From the NCBI GenBank assembly GCA_009903405.1, contig PRCZ01000005.1, forward strand, positions 1 to 49,479: a stretch of 49,479 nucleotides of DNA. Reading direction: 5' to 3'. Positions 1-45,093 of this stretch are shown here, piece by piece (the stretch's first letter is position 1; every line of letters starts with the position of its first letter). The notes under the pieces were generated by a model. That model searched no databases. It was not told where the DNA came from and was given only the letters and a program-made list of their open reading frames with translations. The stretch is from Candidatus Methanophaga sp. AG-394-G06. GTDB lineage: Archaea > Halobacteriota > Syntropharchaeia > Alkanophagales > Methanospirareceae. A program made the position numbers and the translations under genes.

Positions 1-70
1 AATCCGTGTAAATCCGTGTAAATCTGCGTCCTAAATTAAATATGTAGAAGTTATACGTTATATACAATAA
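1..70. repeat. Hairpin-element family 1, right arm (truncated by window edge)
   Basis: AATCCGTGTA-AATCCGTGTA-AATCTGCGTC-CTAAATTAAA...AGTTATACGTTATATACAA; near-identical to 16358-16426 and to the reverse complement of 26471-26535 and 44947-45006. Confidence 0.85.
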
Positions 71-73
71 AAA

Positions 74-1081
74 ATGCTCGAACAATATCTCGGCAAAGTT
101 GTAGATAGGAAAGACCTAAACGCAGAAGAAGCAGAAGCTGCTATGCGAACGATAATGAGCGGCGAAGCGGAGAAACTACAAACTGCTGCGTTCTTAGCCT
201 CTTTACGGACGAAGGGCGAGACAGAAGATGAAATAGCTGCTTTTGCACGGGTCATGCGCGACATGGCACTAAAAATAAAACCGAAAGTGGAGAAGAGCGT
301 GGACGTTTGCGGGACTGGCGGCGATGTGATAAAAACGTTCAACATCTCCACCACTGCTGCGTTCATCACTGCTTGCGTAGTGCCCGTAGCGAAACACGGT
401 AACCGGTCAGTAACGTCAAAATGTGGTAGTGCAGACGTAATAGAGGAATTAGGTGCGAATCTGGCTTTACCGCCTCGCAAGATAGAGGAATGCATCGAGA
501 AGATAGGGATTGGGTTCATGTTCGCACCCTTGCACCATCAGGCGATGAAGAACGTGATGGAAGTGAGGCAGAAGCTGGGTATGAGGACGGTGTTCAATAT
601 TCTGGGTCCGTTAACGAATCCTGCAAATGCAACGCATCAACTCATTGGCGTTTACGATGCTGCAATAACAGATAAGATAGCGAAAGTGCTTCGTATATTG
701 GGTCTGAAGAAGGCGTTAGTGGTGCATGGCGAGCCGGGCGTGGATGAGGTTTCTATCTCCGGGCGGACGAAGGTATCGCATCTGGAAAATGACAGGATAG
801 ATTCGTATTACATAGAACCCGGTGATTTTGGGCTGCAACCGGCATCGCCAGAAGCAATTGCAGGTGGTGATAGGAAAGCGAGTGCGAGGATATTGCAGGA
901 TATATTGAGTTGCAAAGAAAAGGGAGCGAAACGGGATGTTGTTTTATTGAACGCGGCAGCGGCTATCTTCGCTGCTGACGAAGCAACTAGCATAAAAGAG
1001 GGGTTTGAAATTGCAAAGGGGGTATTGGAAGACGGGAAGGCGGCAGAGAAGTTGAAGGCGTTTATTCGGTTTGCGCAGTGA
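74..1081 (+). CDS. trpD: Anthranilate phosphoribosyltransferase
   Basis: DVCGTGGD, FNIST, KHGNRSVTSKCGSAD, RTVFNILGPLTNP motifs; 335 aa. Confidence 0.97.
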   Translation: MLEQYLGKVVDRKDLNAEEAEAAMRTIMSGEAEKLQTAAFLASLRTKGETEDEIAAFARVMRDMALKIKPKVEKSVDVCGTGGDVIKTFNISTTAAFITACVVPVAKHGNRSVTSKCGSADVIEELGANLALPPRKIEECIEKIGIGFMFAPLHHQAMKNVMEVRQKLGMRTVFNILGPLTNPANATHQLIGVYDAAITDKIAKVLRILGLKKALVVHGEPGVDEVSISGRTKVSHLENDRIDSYYIEPGDFGLQPASPEAIAGGDRKASARILQDILSCKEKGAKRDVVLLNAAAAIFAADEATSIKEGFEIAKGVLEDGKAAEKLKAFIRFAQ

Positions 1082-1086
1082 AAACG

Positions 1087-1251
1087 GTATTTGTATAACA
1101 AATCTAAAAAACCACGAGAGTTCACAAGATTGACACAGAACCGGAAATCCGAGAACAGAACTCTGACTTCTTGGACCTTCATTCTCGTAAAATCTGTGTA
1201 AATCTGCGTCATAAATTAAATTTGTAGGTAGAAGTTATACTTTATATACAA
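1087..1251. repeat. Hairpin-element family 1, complete copy filling the trpD-trpC spacer
   Basis: Left arm GTATTTGTATA...AAAAAACCACGAGAGTTCACAAGATTGACACAGA; right arm AATCTGTGTAAATCTGCGTC...GAAGTTATACTTTATATACAA. Confidence 0.8.
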
Positions 1252-1258
1252 CGATAAA

Positions 1259-2017
1259 ATGGTAGAAGAAATCATAAATAGGAAACGAGAGACCATTGGA
1301 AAGCTGAAAGAACGAAGAAGCATAAAAGACGCAATAGTAGCAGCTAAAGCATCAGGAAAACGACCTGTCATTACAGAAGTAAAGCGAAGAGGCTTAAAAG
1401 CAGGAGAGAACGAAGTAGTAATAGAGGCGGAAGAAGCTGCGAGCAAAATGAAAGAAGGCGGTGCATGTGCGCTATCCGTTTTAACAGACGAGGCGTTTTC
1501 CGGTAGTTTAGACGATTTAAGAACCGTAAAAGTTAATGTTGACCTGCCGGTATTGAGAAAGGACTTCATCTTCGATACGTTTCAGGTCTACGAATCCTAT
1601 GCTTGCGGTGCGAGTGCGATATTATTAATAGCGAGATTCTTAACTGTGGCAAGATTGAAGGAGCTGGCAAAGAAAGCTGCCTCACTGGGTATAGAATCAC
1701 TTATCGAGATAGATCGCGAATCAAAAGACAAGATTCTTGATGCCGATCTAACGGAGATTTCATCATCTGCGTTAATCGGCATAAACAATCGCGACTTAGA
1801 TACGTTTGAAGTGACTTTGGAAACTTTTGAGGCGATTGCACCGGCAGTTAAACAGAAGATACCGGACGATGTACCTTTAGTTGCTCTGAGTGGAATTAAT
1901 AATCCGGAAGATGCAAGGCGGATGTTCGATGCGGGTGCAGATGCTTTGCTTGTTGGCACATCCGTTATGAATGCCGCGGATATAGCGCAGAAAGTGAAAG
2001 AGTTGGTGGATAGCTGA
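1259..2017 (+). CDS. trpC: Indole-3-glycerol phosphate synthase
   Basis: ITEVKR, LSVLTD, PVLRKDFI, GINNRDL, LVGTS motifs; follows trpD. Confidence 0.96.
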   Translation: MVEEIINRKRETIGKLKERRSIKDAIVAAKASGKRPVITEVKRRGLKAGENEVVIEAEEAASKMKEGGACALSVLTDEAFSGSLDDLRTVKVNVDLPVLRKDFIFDTFQVYESYACGASAILLIARFLTVARLKELAKKAASLGIESLIEIDRESKDKILDADLTEISSSALIGINNRDLDTFEVTLETFEAIAPAVKQKIPDDVPLVALSGINNPEDARRMFDAGADALLVGTSVMNAADIAQKVKELVDS

Positions 2018-2047
2018 AAAATCGCAAATTCGTTTTAGCTCTTTTAT

Positions 2048-2110
2048 AACCACAAGATTACACCGATTTTCATAAAAATGCAATCCAAGACGAAGCTGAG
2101 TTCGTGGTGT
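2048..2110. repeat. Degenerate hairpin-element family 1 copy
   Basis: AACCACAAGATTACACCGATTTTCA matches the arm at 31235-31260; TTCGTGGT at 2101 can pair with it. Confidence 0.55.
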
Positions 2111-2150
2111 TAATCACATCAATAAATTCACGTATTGACACATGAACGCA

Positions 2151-2678
2151 CTATGCCCATTCAATCACTTCGTAATTGTTCTTAATGACCTTTTTGGTGG
2201 GGTAGATTTCTCCAATAATCTCGTCCGGATCGAACCAAAGATGAATCTCTTTTTTTGCAGATTCCTCGGAGTCCGAGCAATGGATAACGTTCTCCATGAT
2301 GCCCTTTTTGTTAATCCTACCGTAAGCTCCGCGGATGGATATTGGGTCTGCTTCGAGTGGATTCGTTGCACCTGCTATCCTTCGCACTTTTGAGATCGCG
2401 TCCACCCCTTCGGACACAAACACAAGTACGCGTTCATACTCAGGGCCATAGGTTTTACCGGAAAAGTACTCATAAAGGTCATCAAAAAACGGTTCGTCTT
2501 TTAAATGCGCGTAATGCTGCTCCACAAGTTCCCGCGATACGTTGACAACTTTTGCACCTATGAGCCTCAGGCGTGCTTCTAAAAGGCGGGTGAGGATGTT
2601 CCCGGTCAATGATTTCACCAGTGCGTCTGGCTTCAGAATGATCAGAGTGTGTTGGTGTTTCTTTGTTGCTTCGGTCAT
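2151..2678 (-). CDS. ndk: Nucleoside diphosphate kinase
   Basis: TLIILKPDA, GATNP...SIRG, N-V-I-H-C-S-D catalytic His motif, EIHLWF. Confidence 0.95.
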   Translation of the reverse strand: MTEATKKHQHTLIILKPDALVKSLTGNILTRLLEARLRLIGAKVVNVSRELVEQHYAHLKDEPFFDDLYEYFSGKTYGPEYERVLVFVSEGVDAISKVRRIAGATNPLEADPISIRGAYGRINKKGIMENVIHCSDSEESAKKEIHLWFDPDEIIGEIYPTKKVIKNNYEVIEWA

Positions 2679-2750
2679 TGCTTGTACACCTTTTTGGTTA
2701 GATATAAAATAGGATTATTCAATATAAATATAATTAAGGATACTTTGAGA

Positions 2751-2776
2751 GAACAAAATAAAATCAATTATTGACA
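2751..2776. repeat. Isolated outer left-arm fragment of hairpin-element family 1
   Basis: GAACAAAATAAAATCAATTATTGACA matches 16296-16325 and the reverse complement of 26592-26616. Confidence 0.6.
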
Positions 2777-2800
2777 TGTTACATTTTTCATTGTCCGCAC

Positions 2801-4168
2801 TTACCTCTTACCGCCAGCTAAGACCGCAGCAGCCCTGGCTGCGCTTTCCGGTGTAAAGAATACAGGCAAACCGTTTTTCTCCTCGAAATGCTTTGCCATT
2901 CGCCTTGTAAACTTACCACCCGGACTACAGATGAGTATCGGTTTATTGTATATGTCTCTGATCTCTTTCAGCTTATCTACCAGTCGTTCCGTGATTTCCG
3001 GTGGACCCCATAGAACAATTACAATGACAATGTCGTATTCGTCCCTCAAGCCCTCCTCAAGGGCAATAACGTAATTCTCATCGGTAACACTACTGGTCAG
3101 GTCTATGGGATTACCAGTAGCAGTGTAACCGGGCAGTTTGGCGCTCAAGCGTTTTCTCGTTTCCTCTGTAAGACCAGTAACTTCAAGTCCCAAATCTTCA
3201 CATGCATCTGCCATAGTTACAGCGACACCACCACCATCCGTTATAATCAAAACCTTTTTGCCTGCGACCAGATCATAGGAGTTCAAAACCTTACAGGCAT
3301 CCTTTAACCCCTCATAGCCGTCCACCTCAATTATCCCGGCCTTTTTAAATGCCGCCTTATATAGCTCATACCTACCGGATATTGCACCCGTATGTGATCT
3401 GGCAGCATGTACTCCCGCCTCCCTTTTGCCAACCTTAAGAGCAACAACGGGCTTTCTCTTTGTGCATCGCGATGCCACCTCTACAAACCGCCTTCCGTCG
3501 TCTACCGATTCCATGTATAAGACAACAACCTTCGTTGCATCATCATCAACCAGGAAATTGAGGCACTCTGTCTCACCAACGTCAACTCTATTCCCATAAC
3601 TCACAATCCTTGCGACACCAATACCTTCTGACGCCAGCTCATCCACGATCATTTCAGCAAAAGAACCGCTCTGAGTAAGTATAGAGATCCTGCCTCTTTT
3701 GAGCCGCTTCACCCGTTCCACAGGTATAAAAAAAGTATCCATCTTGGACACAGTATCATATATGCCCAAACAGTTTGGACCGATGATCCTTATCCCTTTC
3801 CGCGCAACAATCTCTTTTAGCGATTCTTCCAACCGCCGCCCGGAATCCCCGACCTCCTTGAAACCCGCACTGATAATGATTGCACCCTTGACATTTTCGA
3901 CTGGCTTCAGCGCCCCCAACACTTTAGAGGCAGGTAGTGCAATAATGGCCACATCTATATCGTCCTTTATCTCGGCCATTGAGCTGTAGCACTTGCAACC
4001 GTCAATAGAGGGATATTTAGGATTTACTAGATATGTAGACCCTTTAAAACCGATTCGCTTAAGGCTTTCCAAGATGATATGAGACGCTTTTCCGGGGGTT
4101 GGTGAAGCACCAACAACGGCGATTGTTTTCGGGTTAAAGAAGAAGTTTATGTCTGTTCCAATACTCAT
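2801..4168 (-). CDS. acdA: ADP-forming acyl/acetyl-CoA synthetase alpha subunit (CoA-binding)
   Basis: PKTIAVVGAS, IIGPNCLG, QSG, AARSHTGA phospho-His motif, GNPIDL; no ATP-grasp beta domain. Confidence 0.88.
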   Translation of the reverse strand: MSIGTDINFFFNPKTIAVVGASPTPGKASHIILESLKRIGFKGSTYLVNPKYPSIDGCKCYSSMAEIKDDIDVAIIALPASKVLGALKPVENVKGAIIISAGFKEVGDSGRRLEESLKEIVARKGIRIIGPNCLGIYDTVSKMDTFFIPVERVKRLKRGRISILTQSGSFAEMIVDELASEGIGVARIVSYGNRVDVGETECLNFLVDDDATKVVVLYMESVDDGRRFVEVASRCTKRKPVVALKVGKREAGVHAARSHTGAISGRYELYKAAFKKAGIIEVDGYEGLKDACKVLNSYDLVAGKKVLIITDGGGVAVTMADACEDLGLEVTGLTEETRKRLSAKLPGYTATGNPIDLTSSVTDENYVIALEEGLRDEYDIVIVIVLWGPPEITERLVDKLKEIRDIYNKPILICSPGGKFTRRMAKHFEEKNGLPVFFTPESAARAAAVLAGGKR

Positions 4169-5069: not shown

Positions 5070-5074
5070 CTCTT

Positions 5075-6295: not shown

Positions 6296-6321
6296 TTCAC
6301 GAGCACATCTCCTTCCTGAAA

Positions 6322-7227: not shown

Positions 7228-7280
7228 TTTTAGTCTATAAACTTCCCTTTGCATGCATGAATAAAAAAACCTTATTTCTT

Positions 7281-7763: not shown

Positions 7764-7803
7764 CGCCTCATGCCCGTTATGCTAATCATCTACCATCTCC
7801 CAT

Positions 7804-8655: not shown

Positions 8656-8657
8656 TA

Positions 8658-8684
8658 GATCAAACCTTTTCTTAAAAAGAAAAG
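8658..8684. repeat. Palindromic repeat family 2 copy
   Basis: GATCAAACCTTTTCTT-AA-AAGAAAAG, same architecture as 7282-7311. Confidence 0.55.
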
Positions 8685-8709
8685 CGATGTGCGAAATGAA
8701 ATCTCAGGG

Positions 8710-14202: not shown

Positions 14203-14835
14203 ATGAGAAGAGAAATAATCGGCAGTATTTTAGTTCTGGCAGTGATAGCGTGTTCCATTGGTGTCATATCCGCTCAAAAACCGTTCGGCATGCAAGCACC
14301 TGCTGAGGGTCATCAGCGGTTCGGTGGCGCAGGGTGGATGAACCAGTTGACAGAAGAGCAAAGGGATGATGTGCGGCAGCAGATGCATGAATTCCAACAG
14401 CAGATCTGTGACCAGTATAACCTCTCCCTGCCAAGTGGTCCGTTAAGCAATTTGACTGACGAGGAACGAGCAGATGTACGGCAGCAGATGCGGATGTTCC
14501 AGCGGGGTCAAAGAAATGACACGAAAGAGTTTCGACAGCAGATCTGTGACCAGCATAATCTCTCCTGTCCGGAGGGTCCGTTGAGCAATTTGACTGATGA
14601 GGAACGAACAGAGGTACAGCAACAGATACATGAGTTCCGACAGGGTCAAAGAAATGCCACGCAGGTGTTCCATCAGGCTCAAAAACAGGAAGCGGAAGAG
14701 TTCTGGCAGCAGATCTCTGACCAGTACAACATCACAGATTCAATCGGCCCAAGATTTATGCATGGAGATGGCCATGGTTTCCGCGGCAATAAGGGCTCAC
14801 ACAAGCAGGGTCATGGACCAGGATTTGGAGGCTGA
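14203..14835 (+). CDS. Secreted Gln-rich repeat protein, Spy/CpxP/ZraP-like
   Basis: GGAGGTGA RBS, signal peptide, LTEEQ/LTDEE motifs, 46-aa internal repeat, His/Gly-rich tail. Confidence 0.75.
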   Translation: MRREIIGSILVLAVIACSIGVISAQKPFGMQAPAEGHQRFGGAGWMNQLTEEQRDDVRQQMHEFQQQICDQYNLSLPSGPLSNLTDEERADVRQQMRMFQRGQRNDTKEFRQQICDQHNLSCPEGPLSNLTDEERTEVQQQIHEFRQGQRNATQVFHQAQKQEAEEFWQQISDQYNITDSIGPRFMHGDGHGFRGNKGSHKQGHGPGFGG

Positions 14836-16295: not shown

Positions 16296-16426
16296 GAACA
16301 AACTAAATAAAATCAATTAATGACACAGATTAACGCAGATTAACGCAGAAGAAATCAAATCCGTGTAAATCCGTGTAAATCTGCGTCCTAAATTAAATCT
16401 GTAAAAGTTATACGTTATATGCAATA
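16296..16426. repeat. Hairpin-element family 1, complete copy with short spacer
   Basis: GACACAGATT-AACGCAGATT-AACGCAGA / AATCCGTGTA-AATCCGTGTA-AATCTGCGTC arms. Confidence 0.88.
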
Positions 16427-16434
16427 CAAAAGAA

Positions 16435-16979: not shown

Positions 16980-17058
16980 ATTCAAATTAATTATATTGCC
17001 ACAGTAAATAAATTATATTTCTTTATGGTACATAAAGCACATTATTTCTTTTAGTAAT

Positions 17059-17119
17059 GCTTTTCTTTCTAAGAAAAGGTTTTTGGTAAAGCTTTTAAAA
17101 CTTTTTGAAAGAAAAGTTT
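17059..17119. repeat. Palindromic repeat family 2 copy
   Basis: CTTTTCTT-TCT-AAGAAAAG, GGTAAAGCTTTT and AAACTTTT...AAAAGTTT; GGTAAAGC(C/T)TTT is shared with 7329-7340. Confidence 0.55.
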
Positions 17120-17130
17120 CTGATGTAAAA

Positions 17131-24910: not shown

Positions 24911-24989
24911 GTATTTGTATATTTCTTGCCACCGAGTACACCGAGAGCACCGAGTTTTTTCCCTCAGTGTGCTCTGTGGTCTCTGTGGC
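24911..24989. repeat. Hairpin element with 9-bp units (family 1 variant)
   Basis: GTATTTGTATA then GCCACCGAG-TACACCGAG-AGCACCGAG / CTCAGTGTG-CTCTGTGGT-CTCTGTGGC. Confidence 0.75.
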
Positions 24990-25669: not shown

Positions 25670-26208
25670 GGGGGCGTCACAGAATAACTGTGCCAAGTTC
25701 ATGACGACGGATAGATAGTATAGTTCCATTCTCCATGGAAGCCATTGCGTTTAATGTTGACTGCTTCCAGCTCTTCCTTCGAGATTTTACAGTCGATATG
25801 GTATGTGTTGGTGTCGAGTTCGCAATGTATCCCGAGTCCGTTTTTTGTACTCGTAGCACCAATGAGATTCACCATCACTTCGTGACTGACGAGCGGCTTT
25901 CCTCGCCAGTTTTGATTTATAAAGGAGAACATGTGGTGTTCGATTTTGTTCCACTTACTCGTTCCCGGGGGGAAATGACAAACGGAAATCGGAAAGCCGA
26001 GTTCATTGGCAAGGTTCTGAAGCGCCATCTTCCAGAGCCTGACACGGTAGCCATTACTACCGCCTCCATCGGCCGTGATAAGTAATTGCTGGGCATTGGG
26101 ATAGAGCTTCCGCCCCATCGAGTACCACCATCGGCGAATGGTCATCATTCTTACATTGCATGTAATTTCAATAAGTGGTAGTTAATATAGTTATTTCGTG
26201 ACGCTCCC
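25670..26208 (-). mobile_element. ISAzo13-family remnant with ~20-bp imperfect terminal inverted repeats
   Basis: GGGGGCGTCACAGAATAACT vs AGTTATTTCGTGACGCTCCC (17/20 inverted); TTA flanks both ends. Confidence 0.8.
25699..26148 (-). pseudogene. ISAzo13-family DDE transposase, C-terminal fragment
   Basis: LLITADGGGSNG, HFPPGTSKWNKIEH, NWRGKPL, FHGEWNYTI. Confidence 0.9.
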
Positions 26209-26469
26209 TTAGGAGTTCTTGTATCAGCAGTAGGAATAACTGCGTCAATCTTGATATTTGAGAAGAAAAGAGTTGGTGTCATTCTTGCTTTAATTTGGTC
26301 TGCATTACAGTTCTTATCATTACAAATAGATTCGTTTGGTTTTAATTTCATCCAATTTTTGGATTTGCGTTTTTATTTTAGTATCGGAGGTGCGGATTTC
26401 GGAATAAATCTCTTTGCGATTGTATTATTCTGTTTATTCTTTATAAAACGGAATGAATTGGATATTTAG
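26209..26469 (+). pseudogene. 3' fragment of a membrane protein starting at the IS end
   Basis: Hydrophobic open frame LGVLVSAVGITASILIFEKK... begins exactly at the flanking TTA with no ATG. Confidence 0.55.
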
Positions 26470-26470
26470 C

Positions 26471-26616
26471 GTATATAATGTATAACTACCGCCTATTTAA
26501 TTTAGGACGCAGATTTACACTGATTTACACGGACTTATTCAAGTTTGACCTTGTTGATCATTATCATCTGTGTCAATCTGCGTTAATCTGTGTCAATAAT
26601 TGATTTTAGTTTGTTC
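26471..26616. repeat. Hairpin-element family 1, complete copy (inverted relative to 16296-16426)
   Basis: GGACGCAGATTTACACTGATTTACACGGA ... ATCTGTGTCAATCTGCGTTAATCTGTGTCAATAATTGATTTTAGTTTGTTC. Confidence 0.88.
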
Positions 26617-26620
26617 CCAG

Positions 26621-29485
26621 TTATTTAGCATATTTCCCACGCCGATAAAACCTGCGTTTCAAAACCTCCTTCTCCGATTCGATGATAAGCCCGATCAAAT
26701 GCTCATTCACGGCCCCTTCTCCTTTTAAAATTTCACTTGCATCTTCCGGTTTAATCCCTTTACCCGCAAGTGTAACTAAAGCAGCCTTACCGTAGTTAGA
26801 AACCAACTCAGCCGATATAATCGCATCTTTAACCACTCTCCCCTCTTTTTTACTCTTCACTTTCCGTATCTCGCGCCTGACCAGCTCCTCATCCGCTTGT
26901 ACCGCACCTATGCGCTTCGATTCGCATTCCGGACATTGCACAGTATCCACATCATGTATCCGCGTTACCGCTACATACCTCCAGCAGTTTGTGCATACAA
27001 AAGTCAACGACTCGTCAAGCAACCTTGCTTTCACATACTTTATTATTACCTTATGCATCCTATCGGGCGGGATCAGCTCATAGCCCCTTTTTATTACCTC
27101 CACGATTCCCGCAACAGGGCTAACGCCATCACCTTTTAGCACACTGATTTTTAATTTGCCCGCGGTTATCTGTTTTAACAATCCGATAGTCTGTTTTATA
27201 TTCACATCCTTATCCTGAGCTTCTCTTATAGCTTCATCGAATACTGCAGAGCCATCAAAACTCCTTATCAGGTTGTCAAGGTCCAGATCACTCAATGACG
27301 CTTTCTTCGCTATAGCTCCAAATCGTCTCGCTACATGTATGAACCTATGCTTAAATAACCTACTTCGGACTAATGAGTCGATAGCGAGCTTTTCTATTGC
27401 TCCTGTTGATAGCGCTAAGATAATCGCCTCAACCTCTTCCGGCTCTAACTCGGATTCTGTTCTCAGCATTATCCTGTAAGGATCTTGCTGCACGCCCACG
27501 GGCGCACCTATCTTATCTGATATAACGGTAGCAAGGATCATGGCTAACGTCCGATTTACAAGCAGCCCGAACGAGCATTGCAAGATTATATATTCATTCC
27601 ACTGTTCGAGCGTTAACAGCTTATCTGTCGGTACGGGATAACCGCCTCTCTCTTGCTCTATAACTTCATCTAAAGCGCGGGTAATGGTCTGCTCGCTACA
27701 AGAATAGCGCTGTACGAGCTCCTTACCTATCTCGGCAACCGCCTTACCTGCTTCAAGCTCTTCTTCCAGACCGCCACGGATCTTACCTACCTCGTTCGCA
27801 ACAGGATAAGGAACCGGAATCTCCTCTCCTACCCAGCTTGGGATAGCACCAGTCGGATCCTCTTCGTGCTTTACGTATATCCTATCGCCATACACGTGCA
27901 ATATCTTCCATACACGACCACCTTCGATGAACTTGTTCCCTGCTTTGGCATATTCAGCAACAAAGGCTTCGTCCAAAACGCCTACGGGTTTGTCATCGTC
28001 GTCAATGACCAAGAACTGTCTTACTTCTGGAATCATGGACAAATGCTCGAAATAATAGTTATATAGCGGCTTTATCTGTTTTGGTCTCATGAATACCTTC
28101 TCTTCGGCAGAGAACCAGAGAAGCCGTGGTATTCGTGAATGCATATAGACCAAGACGGAGACTAATTCCTGCTCCTCAAGGTCCCTATAGGGGTATGCCT
28201 TTTTTATCAGTGCCAACGCTTCTTCAAAGCTCCATCGCCCTTGCGCCATAAGCAATCCCGCTATTTGATGTGCCAGAACGTCAAGCGGCTTCTCCGGTAT
28301 GCCAGCAGGCTCTAAATCATCTGTAAGAGCCTTACGACAGATCACTAGCGATTCCAGTGCATCGTCCGAATCCTGAACAACTATCGCACCATTTGCAATG
28401 CCACCTATCCTATGACCGCTTCTGCCGATTCTCTGCAGCAGCCTCGTCACCTGTCTCGGTGAGTTATACTGAATAACAAAGTCCAGCCGGCCGATGTCTA
28501 TACCTAGCTCTAAGGAACTCGTGCAGATAATACCTTGCAGTTTGCCGTCTTTAATACCTTTCTCTACGTTAAGTCGTGATGGCTTGGATAGCGAGCCATG
28601 ATGAACACCAACGAGGAAGTTCAAATCCCAGACCCGGAACCGGCTTCCAAGGATCTCTGTTATCGAGCGCGTATTTGTGAATATCAATGTTGATTTATGC
28701 TCTTCGACCAGTTTCTTCATCAACTGTAACCGAGCGGCGACTTCGGGATATGTATATAGCTCTTCCGCCAGCTTATAATCTTCCGAATCGGCTCGTGGAT
28801 AAAAAACCTCCACCGCTATTGACCTGGCTATCGGGACATTGATTATCTCGCATTCTCGTTGTGTCCCGACCAAGAATTTCGCCACTCGATCTGGCGAGCC
28901 TATGGTGGCGGATAATCCAATGACTTGGAAATCTGCTTTCTTAAGGTACCGAAGCCGTTCCAGTGCAAGAGCAAATTGAGTGCCGCGCTTGTCACATGCG
29001 AGTTCATGCACTTCATCTACGATTACCCATTTGACAACTGCTAGGTGCTGACGCATAATCCTACCCGGTATTATCGCCTGTAACGTCTCCGGTGTGGTAA
29101 TCAGAATATCAGGTGGAGCCATTGCCTGTGCCTCTCTTTCCCTATTCGAGGTGTCGCCATGTCTCACGCCTAACCTCAGGTCAAGTCGTTTACACCACCA
29201 TTGTAATCGTTCAAGCATATCCCTATTCAAAGCTTTCAGTGGCGTTATGTAAAGGACTTTTATTCCTGCACCTCGTTCTGTTCGGATTAACGCATCTAAG
29301 ACGGGTAAAAGTGCCGCTTCTGTCTTGCCACTCGCGGTTGGCGCAATCAATAATACGTTTTTTCCTTCTGTTATAAAAGGAATAGCCCTGGTTTGTGGTT
29401 CGGTGGGACTCGAAAACCCTTTTTCACCTATTGCTTTTTGAATGGGGCTCGAGAATAAGGAGTATACCGTGGGTTCTAGTTCCAT
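26621..29485 (-). CDS. lhr: Lhr-family SF2 helicase with C-terminal Cys motif
   Basis: APTASGKT, TTPETL, DEVH, LSAT, HHGSL, SLELGIDIG, QRIGRSGH; CTNC...CPEC near the C-terminus. Confidence 0.93.
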   Translation of the reverse strand: MELEPTVYSLFSSPIQKAIGEKGFSSPTEPQTRAIPFITEGKNVLLIAPTASGKTEAALLPVLDALIRTERGAGIKVLYITPLKALNRDMLERLQWWCKRLDLRLGVRHGDTSNREREAQAMAPPDILITTPETLQAIIPGRIMRQHLAVVKWVIVDEVHELACDKRGTQFALALERLRYLKKADFQVIGLSATIGSPDRVAKFLVGTQRECEIINVPIARSIAVEVFYPRADSEDYKLAEELYTYPEVAARLQLMKKLVEEHKSTLIFTNTRSITEILGSRFRVWDLNFLVGVHHGSLSKPSRLNVEKGIKDGKLQGIICTSSLELGIDIGRLDFVIQYNSPRQVTRLLQRIGRSGHRIGGIANGAIVVQDSDDALESLVICRKALTDDLEPAGIPEKPLDVLAHQIAGLLMAQGRWSFEEALALIKKAYPYRDLEEQELVSVLVYMHSRIPRLLWFSAEEKVFMRPKQIKPLYNYYFEHLSMIPEVRQFLVIDDDDKPVGVLDEAFVAEYAKAGNKFIEGGRVWKILHVYGDRIYVKHEEDPTGAIPSWVGEEIPVPYPVANEVGKIRGGLEEELEAGKAVAEIGKELVQRYSCSEQTITRALDEVIEQERGGYPVPTDKLLTLEQWNEYIILQCSFGLLVNRTLAMILATVISDKIGAPVGVQQDPYRIMLRTESELEPEEVEAIILALSTGAIEKLAIDSLVRSRLFKHRFIHVARRFGAIAKKASLSDLDLDNLIRSFDGSAVFDEAIREAQDKDVNIKQTIGLLKQITAGKLKISVLKGDGVSPVAGIVEVIKRGYELIPPDRMHKVIIKYVKARLLDESLTFVCTNCWRYVAVTRIHDVDTVQCPECESKRIGAVQADEELVRREIRKVKSKKEGRVVKDAIISAELVSNYGKAALVTLAGKGIKPEDASEILKGEGAVNEHLIGLIIESEKEVLKRRFYRRGKYAK

Positions 29486-29489
29486 ATTT

Positions 29490-29640
29490 GTATTTGTATA
29501 GCGGAGATTAAAAAACCACGAGATTCCACAAGATTAACACAAGAGATAGGGATTAATATGGGATAAAGTAGCTTATAAAGTACTGAAATCTTGTTACTTC
29601 CATTCTATCCGCGTAAAAAGCCGTGTGATCTTGTGGTTAG
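29490..29640. repeat. Hairpin-element family 1 copy
   Basis: GTATTTGTATA...AAAAAACCACGAGATTCCACAAGATTAACACA (like 1087-1139) ... CCGTGTGATCTTGTGGTT. Confidence 0.75.
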
Positions 29641-29746
29641 CTAAAGAATTGCAATTATACTTATAGTTTTCGTAAAAGTTATATAAAAGAACTAAACGGT
29701 ATCTTATATATAGTGTTCTTACCTAAAATATTTTGGACATATAAGC

Positions 29747-31216
29747 ATGACGACTATAACGCCAAAATCACTGTTGAATATCGTGAAAATAGACCTTAAG
29801 AGGGACCTGAACCCGCTACTAAACGAGATTCTTACTATTGTGGGACGAGAGATGCGTGCTCGTTCCGGGACTATTATGCTCGTCAATGAGGAGACAGGTG
29901 AACTTGAGATGGTTGCTACTTTTGGTCTTCCGGACGATTATATTGAAAAGGTTTACAGCGAGGGAGTGCCCATCACCACAAGCCCATCGGGCGTGGTTCT
30001 GAAGGCGGGGCGTTATTACCAGGTGCCTAATATCTTCGAAGAGCCTAGAGATAAACCCTGGTTGGACCTTGGACGTGAGTTAGGCATTTCGGCGCAGATA
30101 GTTATGCCAATGAAACGAAAGGACGAGGTTATAGGTCTGCTGAATGTCTATATGGCAAATCCCCATGAATTCACAGAAAGCGAGATTGCTTTTCTAACAA
30201 TAGCAGCAAGCCAAGCCGCAGCGGTAATCGAAAATGCTAGACTATATACCCGGATAGAGAATAAAAACGTGGAACTGGAGTACGAGATCAACGAGCGTAA
30301 GCGTGTGGAGGCGGCATTGCGGGAGAAAAAGGAACTATTGAGTAACATATTGGCTGGATCCGCTGTTGGGATAGGAGTTGTGGAAGATAGAAAGCTTAGT
30401 TGGACAAATGAAAGCATGATGAAAATGTTCGGTGTAGAAAATGAAGAAGATTATATTGGCCAAAGTGCAAAAATACTTTATGCGTCAGAAGAGGAATATG
30501 AACGAGTTGGCCAAATACTCCATAAAAATCGTACTGATAAAGTAGTCCAATTCGATGCACAACTTAAACGAAAAGATGGTTCCATCTTCTATGGCTGCAT
30601 ATTGATAAGCTTTTTAGATTTGTCTAATCCCATGAAAAAGGCTATTGCTACTATTTTGGATATATCATGGAGAAAGCATGCGGAAGTGGCACTTAAAAGA
30701 TCAGAAGAGCGGCTAAGGGTATTATTTGAATATGCACCGAATGCATACTTCCTGTACGACTTAGAAGGTAACATATTGGACGTTAATAAAGCCGCAGAGA
30801 GCATAAGTGGATATAAAAAGGAAGAAGTAATAGGTAAGAATCTTTTCAATCTGAAAATACTGCCCCCCGAGCAAAAACCAAAAGCAGATGCGTTTTTGGC
30901 TAAGCATGTGCAGGGGCAACCTCGTGATTCCGGTGAGCGTATCTTAACTCGAAAAGAGGGTAATAAGGTCATAGTAGAACTAAGAGCGTTTTCTGTAAAG
31001 ATAGAGGATAGAACTTTGGTGTTATGCTCGACCCTTGACATCACGGCGCGCAAGCGGGCTGAGGAGGCGTTAGTAACCAAAAACCGGGAACTGGTGCGTG
31101 AAATCAACAACCGCAGGCGAGTAGAGAATGCGTTGAAAAGAAGTGAACAAAAGTACAAGGAAATTACTGATTTCTTACCCGACCAGATTTATGAGTATAT
31201 ACGTATACTAAACTAA
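29747..31216 (+). CDS. GAF-PAS-PAS sensor protein lacking an output domain (probably truncated)
   Basis: GAF domain ending QAAAVIENARLY, PAS/PAC ends DISWRK and DITARKRAEE; stops a few residues into another PAS. Confidence 0.82.
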   Translation: MTTITPKSLLNIVKIDLKRDLNPLLNEILTIVGREMRARSGTIMLVNEETGELEMVATFGLPDDYIEKVYSEGVPITTSPSGVVLKAGRYYQVPNIFEEPRDKPWLDLGRELGISAQIVMPMKRKDEVIGLLNVYMANPHEFTESEIAFLTIAASQAAAVIENARLYTRIENKNVELEYEINERKRVEAALREKKELLSNILAGSAVGIGVVEDRKLSWTNESMMKMFGVENEEDYIGQSAKILYASEEEYERVGQILHKNRTDKVVQFDAQLKRKDGSIFYGCILISFLDLSNPMKKAIATILDISWRKHAEVALKRSEERLRVLFEYAPNAYFLYDLEGNILDVNKAAESISGYKKEEVIGKNLFNLKILPPEQKPKADAFLAKHVQGQPRDSGERILTRKEGNKVIVELRAFSVKIEDRTLVLCSTLDITARKRAEEALVTKNRELVREINNRRRVENALKRSEQKYKEITDFLPDQIYEYIRILN

Positions 31217-31218
31217 TC

Positions 31219-31266
31219 GTATTTGTAGCAAGCAAACCACAAGATTACACAGATTTTCACGAGAAA
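31219..31266. repeat. Hairpin-element family 1 single arm
   Basis: GTATTTGTA...AAACCACAAGATTACACAGATTTTCACGAGAAA; near reverse complement of 38580-38612. Confidence 0.75.
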
Positions 31267-38516: not shown

Positions 38517-38579
38517 CTTTGTTTACAACTTCTTCTTTTTCGCGCCCTAAATCATTCTACTCTGCTCATCGCATTTAAA

Positions 38580-38617
38580 TTTCTCGTGTAAATCTGTGTA
38601 ATCTCGTGGTTTAAAAA
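38580..38617. repeat. Hairpin-element family 1 single arm
   Basis: TTTCTCGTGTAAATCTGTGTAATCTCGTGGTTT. Confidence 0.75.
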
Positions 38618-38620
38618 CCC

Positions 38621-39691: not shown

Positions 39692-41196
39692 CTCCGCTCT
39701 TTACCTATCAATCTACTTATCCCATCACTTGTTATCATCCCAATGACCCTTTGGTCCCTGTCAATGACTGGTAACGCAGAAATGTTATATCTCTCTAACT
39801 TTCTTATCACCAGCTCCAGAGGCTCCTCGGAATCCGCAGTTATCACATTCCTTGTCATTATTTCCGCCAAACCCTCATGCCGTGTCGCCACAGCCGTTGA
39901 TATATCCCAGGCGGTTACTATCCCTTCAAGTATTCCTTTTTCTGATATAACAGGGATATGCGTAAATTGAGATTCCATCATCAATTTCGCAGCATCTGCT
40001 ATACTTGCGCTCTCGCTTATTGTCGCAACTTCTCGTATCATCACGTCCTTCACCGGTGGCAGTTCCTTCGTCTGTTTCATTGGTTTACAGACAGTATCTA
40101 TAGGCAATCGCTCTACTGGCTGTGTCAGGAAGAATTCACCACCCTTTATCTCTCTCTTCAACGCATCTGCAACTTTATTCGCCATATAAAAACTAGAAAG
40201 CGGCGAAGTTGGCACTTCCTTTCCTTCTATCTCGATCACACCCGACTTTAACTCCTCGTATGTTACTTTCCTCATTACAGGACGTTCTCTCCTGGGAACA
40301 CTAAAATCAATCACTTCTGTTGTAATATCTGCATCCTGTACCCCTGTTTTCGCCGCTATCCTTGCATTCAATACAGGTATCGGTATTCCAATACCTACGT
40401 ACAGTGTCACGCCATAGCGGTATATGGTGGCACCTCTTATGTATTCCGGACTCATCTCCTTCAAGTTCCCGGAGACCATTAATGATCCAAAGCGGCTAAT
40501 AGGCTCATGCTGCGTCCCCATCCCCACTATATGGCCCTGAGCACCACAGAGAAAAATCCTTGTACCTATCCCTATGGTCTCGAAATCAGGATCGTTAGAA
40601 ATGGGTGACAGTGTGCCGGCACCACAATAATTAGCATTTCGCGAATCCGGAAGTAGCGTGCCCATATAGGTATATAATGCCCTGTCTGCGGAGTTTATTG
40701 CAACTTCATGCCGCTGAAAGGCATTTCGTGGATTTAGCATAACCGCCTGATTCAGGTCTCCGAGCGTAATTGTTGTTTCTAGCTCTTTTCTGGGGTAGCA
40801 ATCTGTGCCAGAGCTAATGGCCTTCACATCTATCGGCTTACCAGCTACTAAATCTTCTAGTACATATCCACCGCCATAGTCTAAGCCTTCGGCTTCTGAT
40901 AATTGCGTTGCCCCGATATAAGCATCTACCGCTGCGATTCCGGTATATGCTTCTACATCATTAAGCCACACTCGCTGCATCCTTATTGGCGGATCTGCAT
41001 GACCTAAGTTGATGAATGCACCTGAGGAGCACATGGGGCCAAAAGTACCCGTGGTGACAACGTCTACTTCCTTTGCTGCTTCTTCCGCACCCAACTCGGT
41101 CACTATCTCGCTCATTCTATCCGCTGTCACTACATGAACACTGCCATCCTCAATTCTTTCGTTTATCTCCTCTATGCTTTTCTTCGTCTCCGCCAT
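39667..41196 (-). CDS. L-aspartate semialdehyde sulfurtransferase (DUF39 + CBS pair; MA1821/MJ0100 family)
   Basis: VDVVTTGTFGPMCSSGA, TDCYPR, NPRNA, YTYMG, C-terminal CBS pair. Confidence 0.9.
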   Translation of the reverse strand: MAETKKSIEEINERIEDGSVHVVTADRMSEIVTELGAEEAAKEVDVVTTGTFGPMCSSGAFINLGHADPPIRMQRVWLNDVEAYTGIAAVDAYIGATQLSEAEGLDYGGGYVLEDLVAGKPIDVKAISSGTDCYPRKELETTITLGDLNQAVMLNPRNAFQRHEVAINSADRALYTYMGTLLPDSRNANYCGAGTLSPISNDPDFETIGIGTRIFLCGAQGHIVGMGTQHEPISRFGSLMVSGNLKEMSPEYIRGATIYRYGVTLYVGIGIPIPVLNARIAAKTGVQDADITTEVIDFSVPRRERPVMRKVTYEELKSGVIEIEGKEVPTSPLSSFYMANKVADALKREIKGGEFFLTQPVERLPIDTVCKPMKQTKELPPVKDVMIREVATISESASIADAAKLMMESQFTHIPVISEKGILEGIVTAWDISTAVATRHEGLAEIMTRNVITADSEEPLELVIRKLERYNISALPVIDRDQRVIGMITSDGISRLIGKERRWQWKLRI

Positions 41197-41280
41197 ACGT
41201 AAATACCTATAAGAGAAACACCTTTAAATATTTCTGTATTCAAAATATTTATACTATCAAACATCTTTACCTCTGTTGCC

Positions 41281-41370
41281 GTTGAACGTGACGGTCAAAT
41301 AATAATTTCTGGCAGAGGTCCGGAAGCAGCCGAAGAATTTGGCAATGCTGTGGCTTTTGCTCTGGAATGA
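41281..41370 (+). pseudogene. C-terminal remnant of a DJ-1/PfpI-family protein
   Basis: VERDGQIIISGRGPEAAEEFGNAVAFALE* matches the PfpI terminal DG.IIT..GP.AA.EF pattern; no start codon. Confidence 0.6.
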
Positions 41371-41462
41371 TAAAGGGGGCAATGGGAAAAGTGAAATTGT
41401 TTTGAGCGATATACTGAATGGAAGAGGATGAAAGAGGAGATAAATGAGGAGGACTTGAGGCC

Positions 41463-41783
41463 ATGAGCGTAATAGTTGTGAATACTGATTTCGTTACGGG
41501 AAAGGAGATAGTAGAGATTTTAGGACTTGTAAAAGGGAATGTAATCCAGGCGAAGCATCTGGGTAAGGATATAGTGGCAGGATTCCGAACGATAGTCGGT
41601 GGTGAGATAAAGGAATACACGGAGATGCTGAGCGAGGCACGTGAGATCGCATTGAAACGGACGACAGAGAAAGCGGAAGAGATGGATGCGGATGCAGTTG
41701 TCAATCTGCGGTTTATGACTTCTATGGTGATGAGCGGCGCAGCGGAAATACTTGCTTACGGGACTGCCGTTAAGCTGAAGTGA
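41463..41783 (+). CDS. YbjQ/UPF0145 family protein
   Basis: LGLVKG, IVGGEIKEY, ADAVVNLRF, EILAYGTAVK. Confidence 0.95.
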   Translation: MSVIVVNTDFVTGKEIVEILGLVKGNVIQAKHLGKDIVAGFRTIVGGEIKEYTEMLSEAREIALKRTTEKAEEMDADAVVNLRFMTSMVMSGAAEILAYGTAVKLK

Positions 41784-41818
41784 GTAAGGAGACTAATTTT
41801 GGATATTAAAGTGTAAAG

Positions 41819-42442
41819 ATGGACGGCAAAAGCCATTTAATCTTTGGAAAGAAGGTTTTGGAGAAATGCTGACTTGATGTCGCGTACACCGGTTGGAGTA
41901 CCACACAGGACATAGACCTTTCTTTCTTACACCGTTATTGGAGACACCGCTTTAGCGTTTTTAATAAGATATACGAAGAATTTATCCGGTTAGAGCCGGC
42001 GGTACCGGTAAAAGAGAAAGAGGCTATTGCAGTGGCAATTACTTCTCATTTCTGGTTGGATATTTTCAATTCCTGGATCTGGATTTGGGGCTTTCTTCCA
42101 CGCTTTCCCGCCCTGTTTGTTCCGAAAGAAGTGTCAAAAGAATATATTGAAGACTTGAATATAGGTTTGCTTGCAGAAGAGCAAAAAGAAGCAGTAAAAG
42201 AATTTTATGATGAATCCGAGAAACTCTTTGAGATTTCTATACCCGCTTTAACAGTTGATGAAACGCTATCGTGGATGCTTACGAGTTTGAAAAAGCACAG
42301 TTATCTCGGCGCTTCTAACGTTAACCTCGCGGTAAGAAACATATCAACATTTATAGGACGCGAGATAGAATACAAAGATATAGACGTAGAAGTAGAAGAG
42401 AAGTATTATAATTTCTTAAATGATTTCTTCGCAAAGTGGTGA
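41819..42442 (+). pseudogene. Putative metal-dependent hydrolase (YdjM-like motifs) with in-frame TGA at codon 18
   Basis: MDGKSH...KC*LD...QDID...HRYWRH...SHFWLD, continuous in frame with the 42032 ORF. Confidence 0.6.
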
Positions 42443-42841
42443 TGTAATGGCATCTGCTCAAAAATCTGTGCATTTTTGTGCAGACAATGCAAAAGGGAAA
42501 GTGCAAAAGGTTGAGGTGAGGCAAGAAATATAATTTTATATATATCTAACTTTAATATGTTACCAATAAGCCTCCTGCCATTGAACACCCACAGCGCAAT
42601 GGCAGGTATATAATCACTGAGAGGTTACTCAGTAATCTCTCATAATATTTTATTATTGTGCTTTAAAGCTATTTATTAGTGATAATCATGGAAAGAGTAG
42701 TCGTTTTTATTAGTTCAACACCGCCTCAACACTATGATACTCATCAATTAATCGCCTCACGTTTTCATCTGTTTCATATGTCCCTTTTAACGCATGGATA
42801 CCTTAGGATTTAATAGCATTCAATAAATAAGGAGATAAAAA

Positions 42842-43909
42842 TTGGTTAAACCAAGAACTCAGTTGTCTGATCTAAGTGTCTGTGAGCATGGGGGGGAACA
42901 AGAGGGTGCGGAAGTAATAGACTTCAGTGTAAATCTAAACCCTTACGGACCGCCGGAATTCGTTCACGAGGTGATAAAGGGTGCAATAGAAGCGATAAAG
43001 TTATACCCTGACACCGAATGCAGCGAGTTAAGAGCGAGAATATCACAAAAATTCGGCTGTGAGACGGACGAAGTATTGGTGGGTGCAGGTGTTTCTGAGC
43101 TCATCCAGCTCATAACTCTTGCGTTCATGAAAAATCGAGCGCTCATGCCGCAACACACTTATGGTGAATATGCCGTTGCGGCAAAGATGATGGGTGCGAA
43201 GATAAAGTGTATAGAAATGCCTGACCTTCGAATCAATCCCGAATTAATAATGGCAGAGATGAAACGCGATGACGTGGTATTCCTCTGCAATCCGAACAAC
43301 CCAACAGGCCAGTATCTCGTCAAAAATGAGGTAGCACAGATAATAGAAGAGGCTGAGCGAATTGATGCGATGGTAGTGCTGGACGAAGCGTATGTGGACT
43401 TTGTAAAGCATGCATTTCCTGCACATAATTTATCCACTCAGAATATGATTATTCTACGCTCTTTAACAAAATCGTTCGCTATACCGGGTGTAAGGGCGGG
43501 ATATGCGATTTCAGCGGAGGAAACGGTAAAAGCAATGGCGAAGATAAAAGTGCCGTGGAGTGTGAGTGTGTTTGCACAGAAGATAGCTGCGGCGGTAATT
43601 AGTACAGAAGGCGATACCTTTTTAGCTGAGACTATAGAGAAGGTAGAACGGAGTAAAGATAAGGTGGAGAACGCGTTGGGGATACACTCAGATGCTAATT
43701 TTTATGCTCTTGATGTGGGTAATGCAAGAGAAGCGAAAAGTGAACTTTTGGGGGCTGGAATCAGGGTAAGAGATTGCAGTTCTTTTGGCTTGCCTTCTCA
43801 TATACGGTTCTCCGTAAGGACGGATGAAGAGAATGAATTGCTGATCCACAACTTTTCTTTACAAAAGCAAAGAAATAAATATACCATACGTATAGACAAT
43901 AAAAAATGA
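42842..43909 (+). CDS. Class I/II PLP enzyme, CobD (threonine-phosphate decarboxylase)/HisC-like
   Basis: HGG...DFSVNLNPYG, YPD, CNPNNPTG, DEAY, RSLTKSF..PG.R.GY, RDCSSF. Confidence 0.88.
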   Translation: MVKPRTQLSDLSVCEHGGEQEGAEVIDFSVNLNPYGPPEFVHEVIKGAIEAIKLYPDTECSELRARISQKFGCETDEVLVGAGVSELIQLITLAFMKNRALMPQHTYGEYAVAAKMMGAKIKCIEMPDLRINPELIMAEMKRDDVVFLCNPNNPTGQYLVKNEVAQIIEEAERIDAMVVLDEAYVDFVKHAFPAHNLSTQNMIILRSLTKSFAIPGVRAGYAISAEETVKAMAKIKVPWSVSVFAQKIAAAVISTEGDTFLAETIEKVERSKDKVENALGIHSDANFYALDVGNAREAKSELLGAGIRVRDCSSFGLPSHIRFSVRTDEENELLIHNFSLQKQRNKYTIRIDNKK

Positions 43910-44898
43910 ACAGCATAAGAGTCATCATATCAGGTTGGATAGAACTCTCCGGACTGCCAAAGTTCGTAACTACTATGCTCCCGTTCCTCCTGGGCGCGGT
44001 AGTAGCATGGGCTTATGGGTGTCCGATAGACTGGATTGTGCTGGTATTATCGCTGCTTGCAGTGTTCCTGATAACCGATTCATGCTTCGTACTCAATGCG
44101 TGCAGTGTATACGCGGATCTAAAGCGAAACGGTGTCGATTTCTGTCCCGTAGATGGAACAAGCACGCTTCATTCCACTGCAGTCAGCGGCCGGTTTAACG
44201 CACTCGCGAAAGGACGTATAACAGTGAAACAGGCGGCTATTGGCTCTTATCTGTGCATATTGGCCGCATTACCAATCGGCGTGCTGTTGCAGTTCTATTT
44301 CTATACGGGCGTTCTAACCTTGCCGCTCGGGCTCATCGGCATCTTCATTGCATACGCGTATTCACGAGGGCCACAGTTCTCTTACCGCGGATTGGGCGAG
44401 ATAGCGCTAACCCTTGGGGTAGGGTGGTGGACAGTGTTCAGCGGTTACTATTTGCAAGCGCACCAGGTGAGCTGGCTCCCTATTGTCATTGCGTTGCCTT
44501 GGGGTATAGACGTATTCAAGCTGAAATTAACGCGAGAAATACCTGATTTTGACAGCGATCAGGTGATAAACCGCAGGAACTTGACAATTCGTATGGGCAA
44601 AGTCACGGCTGTCAGCCTCTATTTACCGTTAACGGTCGCTTCATGGCTCGCATTTATCCCTATCGTGTTCTTAGACGTACCATATATAGCGTTCGTGCTG
44701 TTAGCTCTTCCGATGTTCTTCACTGCGAAGAGTTTGATATTAATTCAAACGTTTAAAAAGAGTTTAATCAAAAATAGTGATCGATGGAAAGCCGAAGTAG
44801 GTATGCAAGCCATAATTAAAAACGCATTCACCGGTATGATATTGATTCCCGTTGCACTTATTGGTATTTTTGCTCTTAAGATGGTTGTATCGGTTTAG
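43906..44898 (+). CDS. UbiA/MenA-family prenyltransferase
   Basis: Multi-TM; G.D, YS.GP..YRGLGE, IPDFDSD...RRNL MenA-like motifs. Confidence 0.8.
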   Translation: MNSIRVIISGWIELSGLPKFVTTMLPFLLGAVVAWAYGCPIDWIVLVLSLLAVFLITDSCFVLNACSVYADLKRNGVDFCPVDGTSTLHSTAVSGRFNALAKGRITVKQAAIGSYLCILAALPIGVLLQFYFYTGVLTLPLGLIGIFIAYAYSRGPQFSYRGLGEIALTLGVGWWTVFSGYYLQAHQVSWLPIVIALPWGIDVFKLKLTREIPDFDSDQVINRRNLTIRMGKVTAVSLYLPLTVASWLAFIPIVFLDVPYIAFVLLALPMFFTAKSLILIQTFKKSLIKNSDRWKAEVGMQAIIKNAFTGMILIPVALIGIFALKMVVSV

Positions 44899-44906
44899 AT
44901 ACACGT

Positions 44907-45093
44907 AACCACGAGATTATAACGTATGGCAACCTTTTGTTTTATTTTGTATATAACGTATAAGTTCTACCTATTTAGGACGCAGATTTACACGGATTTA
45001 CGCAGAAAACTATTTCCTCAAAGTATCTAATAATCTCCTCCGTCAACTAAACCTTATATTTTAAATCCTGCTTATCTGCGTTCATCTGCGTCC
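44907..45093. repeat. Hairpin-element family 1 copy with a decayed ORF start in its spacer
   Basis: TTGTATATAACGTATAAGTTC...GGACGCAGATTTACACGGATTTACGCAGA / ATCTGCGTTCATCTGCGTCC; extra AACCACGAGATTA at 44907. Confidence 0.85.

Follow-up and report, generated by a model that had tools for sequence, protein, structure and literature searches.

Dispersed inverted repeats of Candidatus Methanophaga sp. AG-394-G06 as probable ends and gene-less remnants of very small GxxExxY cassettes

The genome of Candidatus Methanophaga sp. AG-394-G06 contains a dispersed family of intergenic repeats built from tandem 9-10-bp units, which probably represent a family of selfish cassettes of very small size, either as their ends or as remnants without the gene. 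Each cassette carries a single gene for a GxxExxY protein (PF13366, PDDEXK_3), a putative nuclease that probably moves it. The repeats were followed from a stretch of 49,479 nucleotides (PRCZ01000005.1; hereafter the window), which is an entire contig (C75) of a 1.53-Mb, 119-contig assembly (G000; 42.7% G+C, 75% complete). The window has archaeal, methanogen-like gene content (CdhA/B, FrhB, S4e, S24e, Rpo7 and a methanogen-type SerRS), and public contigs that share its repeats bear titles that are mostly Methanophagales (= ANME-1). The comparison set comprised 41 genomes (G000 and 40 relatives), site-by-site turnover was followed between G000 and five congeners with flanking genes approximately 90-98% identical, and genes were placed genome-wide by proxy open reading frames (ORFs) covering 83% of the genome.

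The intact cassette is approximately 470 bp long and consists of two or three 9-10-bp units, one GxxExxY gene of about 125 residues, and the same units inverted; the units share the core C-R-C-N-G-A-T/G, and the innermost units overlap the start or stop codon of the gene. Intact genes in the relatives belong to four subfamilies, each bracketed by its own unit variant: ACRCNGATNW for subfamilies A and C, CCACRAGATT for subfamily B, and 9-bp units (CRCNGAG) for subfamily D. At eight B loci the left arm is directly upstream of the start codon in seven, the full right arm is present in six, and the innermost unit lies over the stop codon in all eight; at six D loci the left arm is present in all and the right arm is at the stop codon in four. 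Three recurrent outer tails, which an earlier note on the window had picked out, can be read directly in the sequence: B- and D-type arms have GTATTTGTATA at their outer end, A/C-type left arms GAACAAA..AAAATCAATTA, and A/C-type right arms AGTTATACGTTATATACAA. Because unit variants and tails alike bracket GxxExxY genes, a single cassette family accounts for the three unit types as well as the three tails, and the co-variation of arms with genes makes recognition of the arms by a trans-acting enzyme plausible.

Decayed cassettes are found in G000 itself. A PF13366 search identified a frameshifted A-type gene (G000:C64:52164-52495) situated between two arm pairs (G000:C64:52050-52650), in addition to two fragments, and one recurrent spacer type translates to part of the GxxExxY protein. 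In the window, the reverse-strand element at 44937-45100 matches the intact C-type cassette of a relative, G019, in two blocks (83 nt at 91.6% identity, positions 6-85; 57 nt at 96.5%, positions 409-465) and is a C cassette with an internal deletion that removed 323 bp of gene sequence. The elements at 16296 and 26471 are arms and tails with next to nothing between them, and the arm spacing of the 16296 form is identical in 15 copies genome-wide. The centre of the elements had been taken for a cargo slot, but it does not hold free or varied cargo and is mostly a remnant of the GxxExxY gene or nothing; host genes do occur between arms and are variably present, which also fits recombination between arms. 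The system had also been described as non-autonomous, but it is not purely so: the arms are the ends of cassettes that carry the nuclease gene. Long arm-bounded autonomous elements were considered in G000 and rejected: its long repeats consist of paralogous genes of surface-protein and restriction-like types.

The signal of dispersed repeats is far above chance. Short-word blastn of eleven window elements against the genome gave 622 matches that merge into 168 loci, several of them at contig ends, the window contig included. Arrays of at least two tandem units number 183 genome-wide (127 with two units and 56 with three, the units abutting) versus 2 after a single mononucleotide shuffle; for the three types, two-unit patterns number 209, 68 and 36 versus 0-1 in each of five shuffles, and 10-mers of the units rank among the commonest 10-mers of the genome. 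Arrays within 400 bp of each other form 43 face-to-face pairs, 3 and 2 pairs in the two tandem orientations, and no outward-facing pairs. Just 7 of the 183 arrays are mostly inside proxy ORFs, six of these touching an ORF end. The earlier note's picture of a dispersed intergenic family, similar to miniature transposable elements with inverted repeats (MITEs) or repetitive extragenic palindromic (REP) sequences, is thus borne out by the loci, the facing pairs and the scarcity of arrays in genes, as is its statement that these are not CRISPR: the arrays hold two or three abutting units, paired in inverted orientation, and none is a long array with regular spacers.

The relatives' proteins match both PF13366 and TIGR04256, the latter at 157.7, 139.7, 137.5 and 159.8 bits for the four subfamilies (cut-off 35), and the window holds only a remnant. 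The catalytic residues of a PD-(D/E)XK nuclease are present: an alignment of 40 sequences shows no variation at D74, E84, K86 or the GxxExxY residues. A structure model (pLDDT 95.1) has the PD-(D/E)XK fold, with Cas4 SSO0001 (4ic1) as the best structural match (E 8.1e-4, TMq 0.54, TMt 0.36), followed by exonucleases, restriction-like proteins and Hjc resolvases; sequence search found no matching solved structure. Libraries of defence and phage proteins gave weak Cas4 and endonuclease matches only (Cas4 profile E about 1e-3). The likeness to Cas4 and other small PD-(D/E)XK nucleases is at the level of the fold only, since the structural match covers its target partially and there is no cas context here. 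Many family members of 240-295 residues (including P0001-P0021) hold two GxxExxY domains, and in some members with a single domain, extensions at the N or C terminus resemble translated unit arrays, for example TEGTEDTE and RRTESTQNPRRTQRT. One survey paper gives the function of PDDEXK_3 as unknown and its clades as mixed bacterial and archaeal, and another paper mentions a GxxExxY domain beside a reverse transcriptase.

Both gene and arms are under purifying selection: the ratio of nonsynonymous to synonymous substitution rates (dN/dS) is 0.05-0.25 in 21 pairs of B-type genes (seven genomes, dS reaching 1.15), and the approximately 30-nt arms of the B cassettes have just a few differences across the same span. 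In five genomes belonging to two genera (G023, G001, G002, G006 and G005), a cbiL-like methyltransferase gene has a B-type cassette at its 3' end, where the GxxExxY gene is read in frame with the methyltransferase through the translated arm; it has no ATG of its own in four of the five genomes, and is still under purifying selection.

Arms and genes occur together across the comparison set. With one mismatch allowed, a 19-mer of the B arm is found in 21 of the 41 genomes, and the reversed-pattern control is 0 everywhere. The breakdown by relatedness is 8 of 8 in the genus (22 to 113 matches each), 18 of 24 in the rest of the family and 3 of 16 outside it. PF13366 is found in 15 genomes (14 of the 40 relatives, and G000), all of them among the 21 with the B arm, and in none of the 20 genomes without it. 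An exact 22-mer of the arm is also present in contigs titled Ethanoperedens, Syntrophoarchaeum and Methanolliviera. Compared with the flanks in G000, one of two Ethanoperedens contigs has no similarity and the other a single 67% stretch; the Syntrophoarchaeum contig matches G000 at the arms only, and the Methanolliviera contig has no blastn match to G000 at 1e-10. A seeming bacterial occurrence of the exact arm was rejected: the contig, titled 'Desulfuromonadales', is ANME-1-like and syntenic with G000:C27 at about 73%, and so is probably mis-binned.

The same cassette design recurs far from the genus. At E <= 0.001 a profile of eight of these proteins retrieved 39,956 cluster representatives, with 18,217 at 1e-10, and 80 metagenome loci with proteins 42-59% identical were fetched, of which 71 have at least 110 bp on both sides. 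At 51 of these 71 an inverted repeat from flank to flank scores at least 14 and beats all 20 shuffles; a direct-repeat control reaches a score of at least 14 at 17. Among 49 arms of at least 20 nt, 46 have their best internal period at 8-11 nt, and the metagenome units (CACAGAG, CGCAGAG, CGCAGATT and CAGGATT) have a core in common with those of G000. By eye, three of four GxxExxY matches in a viral collection have this architecture too. It is quite possible, though put forward more tentatively than the reading of the ANME-1 repeats, that GxxExxY proteins are the only mobility enzymes of a very large class of miniature autonomous elements, hitherto unrecognised, that spans Bacteria and Archaea. 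The nuclease of about 125 residues would then read the units at the two ends of its cassette and move that cassette, and gene-less copies with it, by break repair without target duplication, and in ANME-1 these copies would be a main source of promoters and of intergenic turnover.

Elements are rapidly gained, lost and replaced at gene junctions. Presence/absence variation among sister genomes is seen, with elements differing at nine or more sites within the genus. Between trpD and trpC, the window has 165 bp where G004 and G006 have 41 unrelated bp, and G001 has a B-type element together with two genes. Between pyrI and tRNA-Ala, the element is present in G001, G002 and G006, and absent from G005, where the junction carries GTTATAT, a 7-nt repeat; in G004 the site is occupied by a 9-bp-unit element, which shares the first bases of the window's element. 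Because G004 and the window share sequence that is missing from G005, the G005 state looks like a secondary deletion. Three different deletions are found at site 26470 (123 bp in G002, 151 bp in G006 and 239 bp in G001). At site 44950, the element is absent from G005 and G006, and G004 has two oxidoreductase genes, both missing in G000, G005 and G006; window positions 45100-45190 (reverse strand) encode the first ~20 codons of an NDH-2-like flavoprotein gene that is whole in G004 beside the second oxidoreductase gene. At site 6297, G002 and G004 have an element with its tail abutting an ATG and the window has none; at site 2776, the window has only a tail and G002 has two elements, one full and one of 9-bp units.

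Elsewhere in the genome, removal of 135 bp at G000:C53:46354 gives exact closure in G004 with 0-1 nt of overlap, and G000:C53:52144 has three states in three genomes. At the latter site, a fifth element type with GTATTTGTATAGC tails and CCAAGCA-like units was observed (G006:C83:14230-14580). At G000:C86:25920, G000 has 139 unrelated bp versus 479-592 bp in G001, G002, G004 and G006 and approximately 690 bp in G005; the stretch in G001, when read, consists of a D cassette and a hairpin. Two genes with 18 bp between them in the aligned G000 flanks are separated in G019 by a 520-bp stretch that holds an intact B cassette. The GAF-PAS sensor gene of the window and the arms on its two sides (29507-31259 in all) are missing in G006, and contigs of two sequencing runs join position 29493 to about 31260. 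A gene for a 265-residue membrane protein between arms is present in G002, absent from G000, and, by the size of the gap, probably present in G001. Breaks are found at the borders of arrays: in all three solitary tails, the break is 0-4 nt from the border between tail and first unit.

No clear target-site duplication had been seen in the window, and none emerged from these comparisons: the exact site has 0-1 nt of overlap, the flanks of B-type elements have none, and no length is consistent. A fixed duplication of 7 bp was considered, given 7-nt repeats at two sites that resemble deletion microhomology, and was rejected on the sequence shared by G004 and the window but missing in G005, the three deletions at 26470, and the site with 0-1 nt of overlap.

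It is improbable that the repeats are ordinary MITEs moved by an unrelated transposase, such as ISAzo13 or the IS200/IS605 TnpA, with GxxExxY as a passenger. Candidate enzymes do exist: the window contains a truncated ISAzo13-family DDE transposase (25699-26148, reverse strand, profile positions 164-308 of 308), five fragments of that family are found genome-wide, and PF01797 (Y1) matches four short fragments in the genome, one with a stop codon. Both were rejected as movers, as the Y1 matches are fragments only and neither they nor the ISAzo13 fragments adjoin the arms. A passenger gene is also difficult to reconcile with the co-variation of arm variants with GxxExxY subfamily, with the unit inserted in G019, which holds the GxxExxY gene alone, with the same design at 51 of 71 unrelated loci, and with the absence of a consistent target duplication.

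The outer tail TATATACAA is placed preferentially next to gene starts. For 48 copies of this tail with units upstream, a start of a proxy gene is found within 15, 30 and 60 nt in 13, 19 and 24 cases versus 1.6, 3.0 and 5.5 for random intergenic points, and a stop codon in 4, 5 and 8 cases versus 1.5, 2.7 and 4.8. Several copies share the last base of their tail with the ATG. Examples in the window are trpD and trpC. With the TATA-like stretches that it contains, this tail probably acts as an outward promoter. In contigs of four RNA runs the elements have multi-copy depth, and joints such as 29493>31260 are seen; the contigs provide no transcript starts, strands or levels.

Such enrichment beside start codons could also be expected of REP-like regulatory or structural repeats maintained by the host through selection, whose arrays would bind a host factor, whose tails would be promoters or terminators, and which would spread only by recombination, with GxxExxY as a domesticated partner and not a mobility enzyme. 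This alternative has further points in its favour, namely the conservation of exact 19-mers across genera of one family despite a dS of 0.5-1.1 between gene copies, the cassette retained at the cbiL-like locus in five genomes of two genera, and the persistence of arms in genomes that lack the gene. It is nevertheless unlikely, since some copies point at the 3' ends of genes (the pyrI and UbiA sites), the same site has different element types or none in congeners, the cassette design recurs around distant family members on unrelated metagenome contigs, and contigs from other archaeal orders have the arm within unrelated flanks.

Less probable than either of these alternatives is that the repeats act mainly as RNA, as hairpins that end, stabilize or process transcripts or as genes for small RNAs. 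The arms are inverted and are found within operons such as trpD-trpC, and elements are present in contigs of RNA libraries, although such contigs are uninformative on whether the hairpins are transcribed units. Folding of six elements as single-stranded DNA was moderate (z -0.9 to -4.6, the lowest for the 24911 element): three fold better than shuffles (z -3.0 to -4.6), but the other three are no better than about 2 standard deviations from them. Rfam at gathering scores detects two tRNAs in the window and nothing else. Left and right arms are systematically different variants and are conserved as such, not as complements of each other; together with the moderate folding, this fits protein-binding ends better than a hairpin as the signal.

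If the repeats are indeed ends of GxxExxY cassettes, internal deletion would produce MITE-like copies that keep only the arms and outer tails. The GxxExxY protein would bind the units, one per helical turn (~10 bp), and would cut at the outer edge of the array; repair of the break may then lose, move, replace or copy elements, with or without the gene and with no fixed target duplication, so that the nuclease would be what moves them. Repair of breaks would explain the 3-7-nt microhomologies and the replacement of whole spacers, and an outward promoter in the tail would explain why surviving copies are often directly upstream of a start codon.

Several observations weigh against this interpretation. 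To our knowledge, no PD-(D/E)XK protein of such size transposes DNA alone, and the binding and cutting of arms by the nuclease are inferred steps. No intact GxxExxY gene is found in G000, which has just 4 fragments in an assembly that is 75% complete, and the B arm is present, at 1 to 39 matches each, in six genomes that have no PF13366 match (G008, G009, G010, G018, G022 and G033). The co-occurrence of gene and arm is not phylogenetically independent, because the genomes are kin. Most of the 'empty' sites resemble secondary deletions or replacements of whole spacers and not untouched targets, and exact gain or loss without duplication is seen at one site only. Short-word blastn gives no similarity between the GxxExxY gene and the cores of B-type elements; matches are confined to the arms, so that these cores were rejected as gene remnants, and they are recurrent cores of other origin. 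The promoter role is argued solely from position and TATA-like sequence.

All eleven loci reported in the window by the earlier note were recovered, and all are intergenic as it had maintained, falling between ORFs or tRNA genes. A regular expression for the units gives arrays at 1-29, 1113-1209, 16324-16386, 24930-24984, 26508-26593, 29517-29535, 31238-31256, 38591-38608 and 44910-45091, and isolated single-unit matches elsewhere in the window. The first element (1-74, forward), cut by the contig start, is a right arm of three 10-bp units (AATCYGYGTN) and an outer tail ending TTATATACAA that abuts the ATG of trpD at 74; it is 95% identical to 16358-16431. The forward element at 1087-1254 has the tail GTATTTGTATA, a B-type left arm (1113-1131), a spacer and an A-type right arm (1191-1210), and its right-hand tail ends TATATACAA, 7 nt upstream of the trpC ATG. 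Its counterpart in G001 has the same left half and a B-type right arm; the window's element is evidently a chimera with the changeover inside similar units. The B-type arm at 2040-2115 (forward), AACCACAAGATTACACCGATTTT, faces a degenerate partner (2095-2110), and at 2751-2776 (forward) is a solitary outer tail, GAACAAAATAAAATCAATTATTGACA, without units.

The arms-only element at 16296-16434 (forward), between tRNA-Ala and the pyrI stop codon, consists of a tail, three units, a 7-nt spacer, three inverted units and a tail; 26465-26620 (reverse) is of the same type with a 30-nt spacer, and its short-spacer form is present in contigs of sequencing runs. Behind the tail GTATTTGTATA, the forward 9-bp-unit element at 24911-24989 has three copies of CACCGAGNN facing three of CTCNGTGNN. 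The forward B-type element at 29485-29645 has a tail, a left arm (29515-29543), a 60-nt core and a diverged right arm (29602-29640), and the single B-type arm at 31219-31266 (forward), behind the tail GTATTTGTAG, brackets the GAF-PAS gene together with the arm at 29515. Another single B-type arm, at 38580-38617 on the reverse strand, is 94% complementary to 31234-31266, and an isolated B-type unit fragment, AACCACGAGATTATAACG, at 44907-44925 (forward) is shared with G005. The generalization that every arm faces an inverted partner applies to six loci and fails for five of the eleven (1-70 at the contig end, 2751-2776 with its tail only, the single arms at 31219 and 38580, and 2048-2110 with its weak partner). 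Spacers are not all unique: those at 1087, 2048 and 29490 have no other match in the genome, but the spacer at 44907 has 5 other matches, that at 26471 has 2, and the 7-nt type at 16296 is recurrent. Arms are mixed as the earlier note had described, the right arm being the same at 1087, 16296 and 44947 and the left arm different at each.

Another dispersed repeat, made up of TTTGGTAAAGCTTTT and then an A/G-rich hairpin, is found at 8662-8685 and 17050-17120 of the window and genome-wide; of its 90 fuzzy matches in the genome just 22 are within 150 bp of a unit array, and it forms the core of many B-type elements. The ORF at 14203-14835, without a Pfam match, contains a 138-nt tandem duplication (14389-14664, 79-83% identical).

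Several known systems resemble the cassettes in part. In the REP doublets and REP-associated tyrosine transposases (REPIN-RAYT) of Pseudomonas and E. coli, the enzyme gene is flanked by its own inverted repeats, gene-less doublets are intergenic, and there is no target duplication. The cassettes likewise have a small enzyme gene within its own inverted repeats, many gene-less inverted doublets, and repeats long conserved in the lineage, but the flanked gene is PF13366 with a PD-(D/E)XK fold instead of an HUH/Y1 enzyme, and the arms are tandem arrays of 9-10-bp units instead of a single GC-rich palindrome. Similar to MITEs, those of archaea included, the repeats are short, non-coding, multi-copy and variably present, with terminal inverted repeats, and derive by internal deletion from a gene-bearing element; unlike MITEs, they have no consistent target-site duplication, and the parent, a gene-bearing cassette that shares their ends, encodes no recognized transposase. 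Correia elements (CREE/NEMIS) of Neisseria are also small inverted-repeat elements at gene junctions, with outward promoters, a role that is drawn here from position only; they differ in their TA duplication, and we know of no cognate gene for them. The foldback transposons of Drosophila have long inverted arms made of ~10-bp tandem repeats, an analogy of form only, these being eukaryotic, much longer and unrelated in sequence. The intervening sequences of bacterial 23S rRNA are units of ~450 bp with inverted ends and one ORF of ~120 codons and unknown function, found in many lineages, but the ORF is of another family and these units lie within rRNA genes. Searches yielded no description of cassettes of this kind in the literature on ANME-1/Methanophagales repeats and on the GxxExxY/PDDEXK_3 family.

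The fixed cassette design and the cognate repeat arrays give the very large GxxExxY/PDDEXK_3 family a testable role, and the cassettes account for one repeat per approximately 9 kb in these uncultured methane-oxidising archaea. The repeats break assemblies, several contigs including that of the window ending in them, and they reshape the intergenic regions between near-identical genomes. Housekeeping genes, trpD and trpC among them, may also receive promoters from these repeats.

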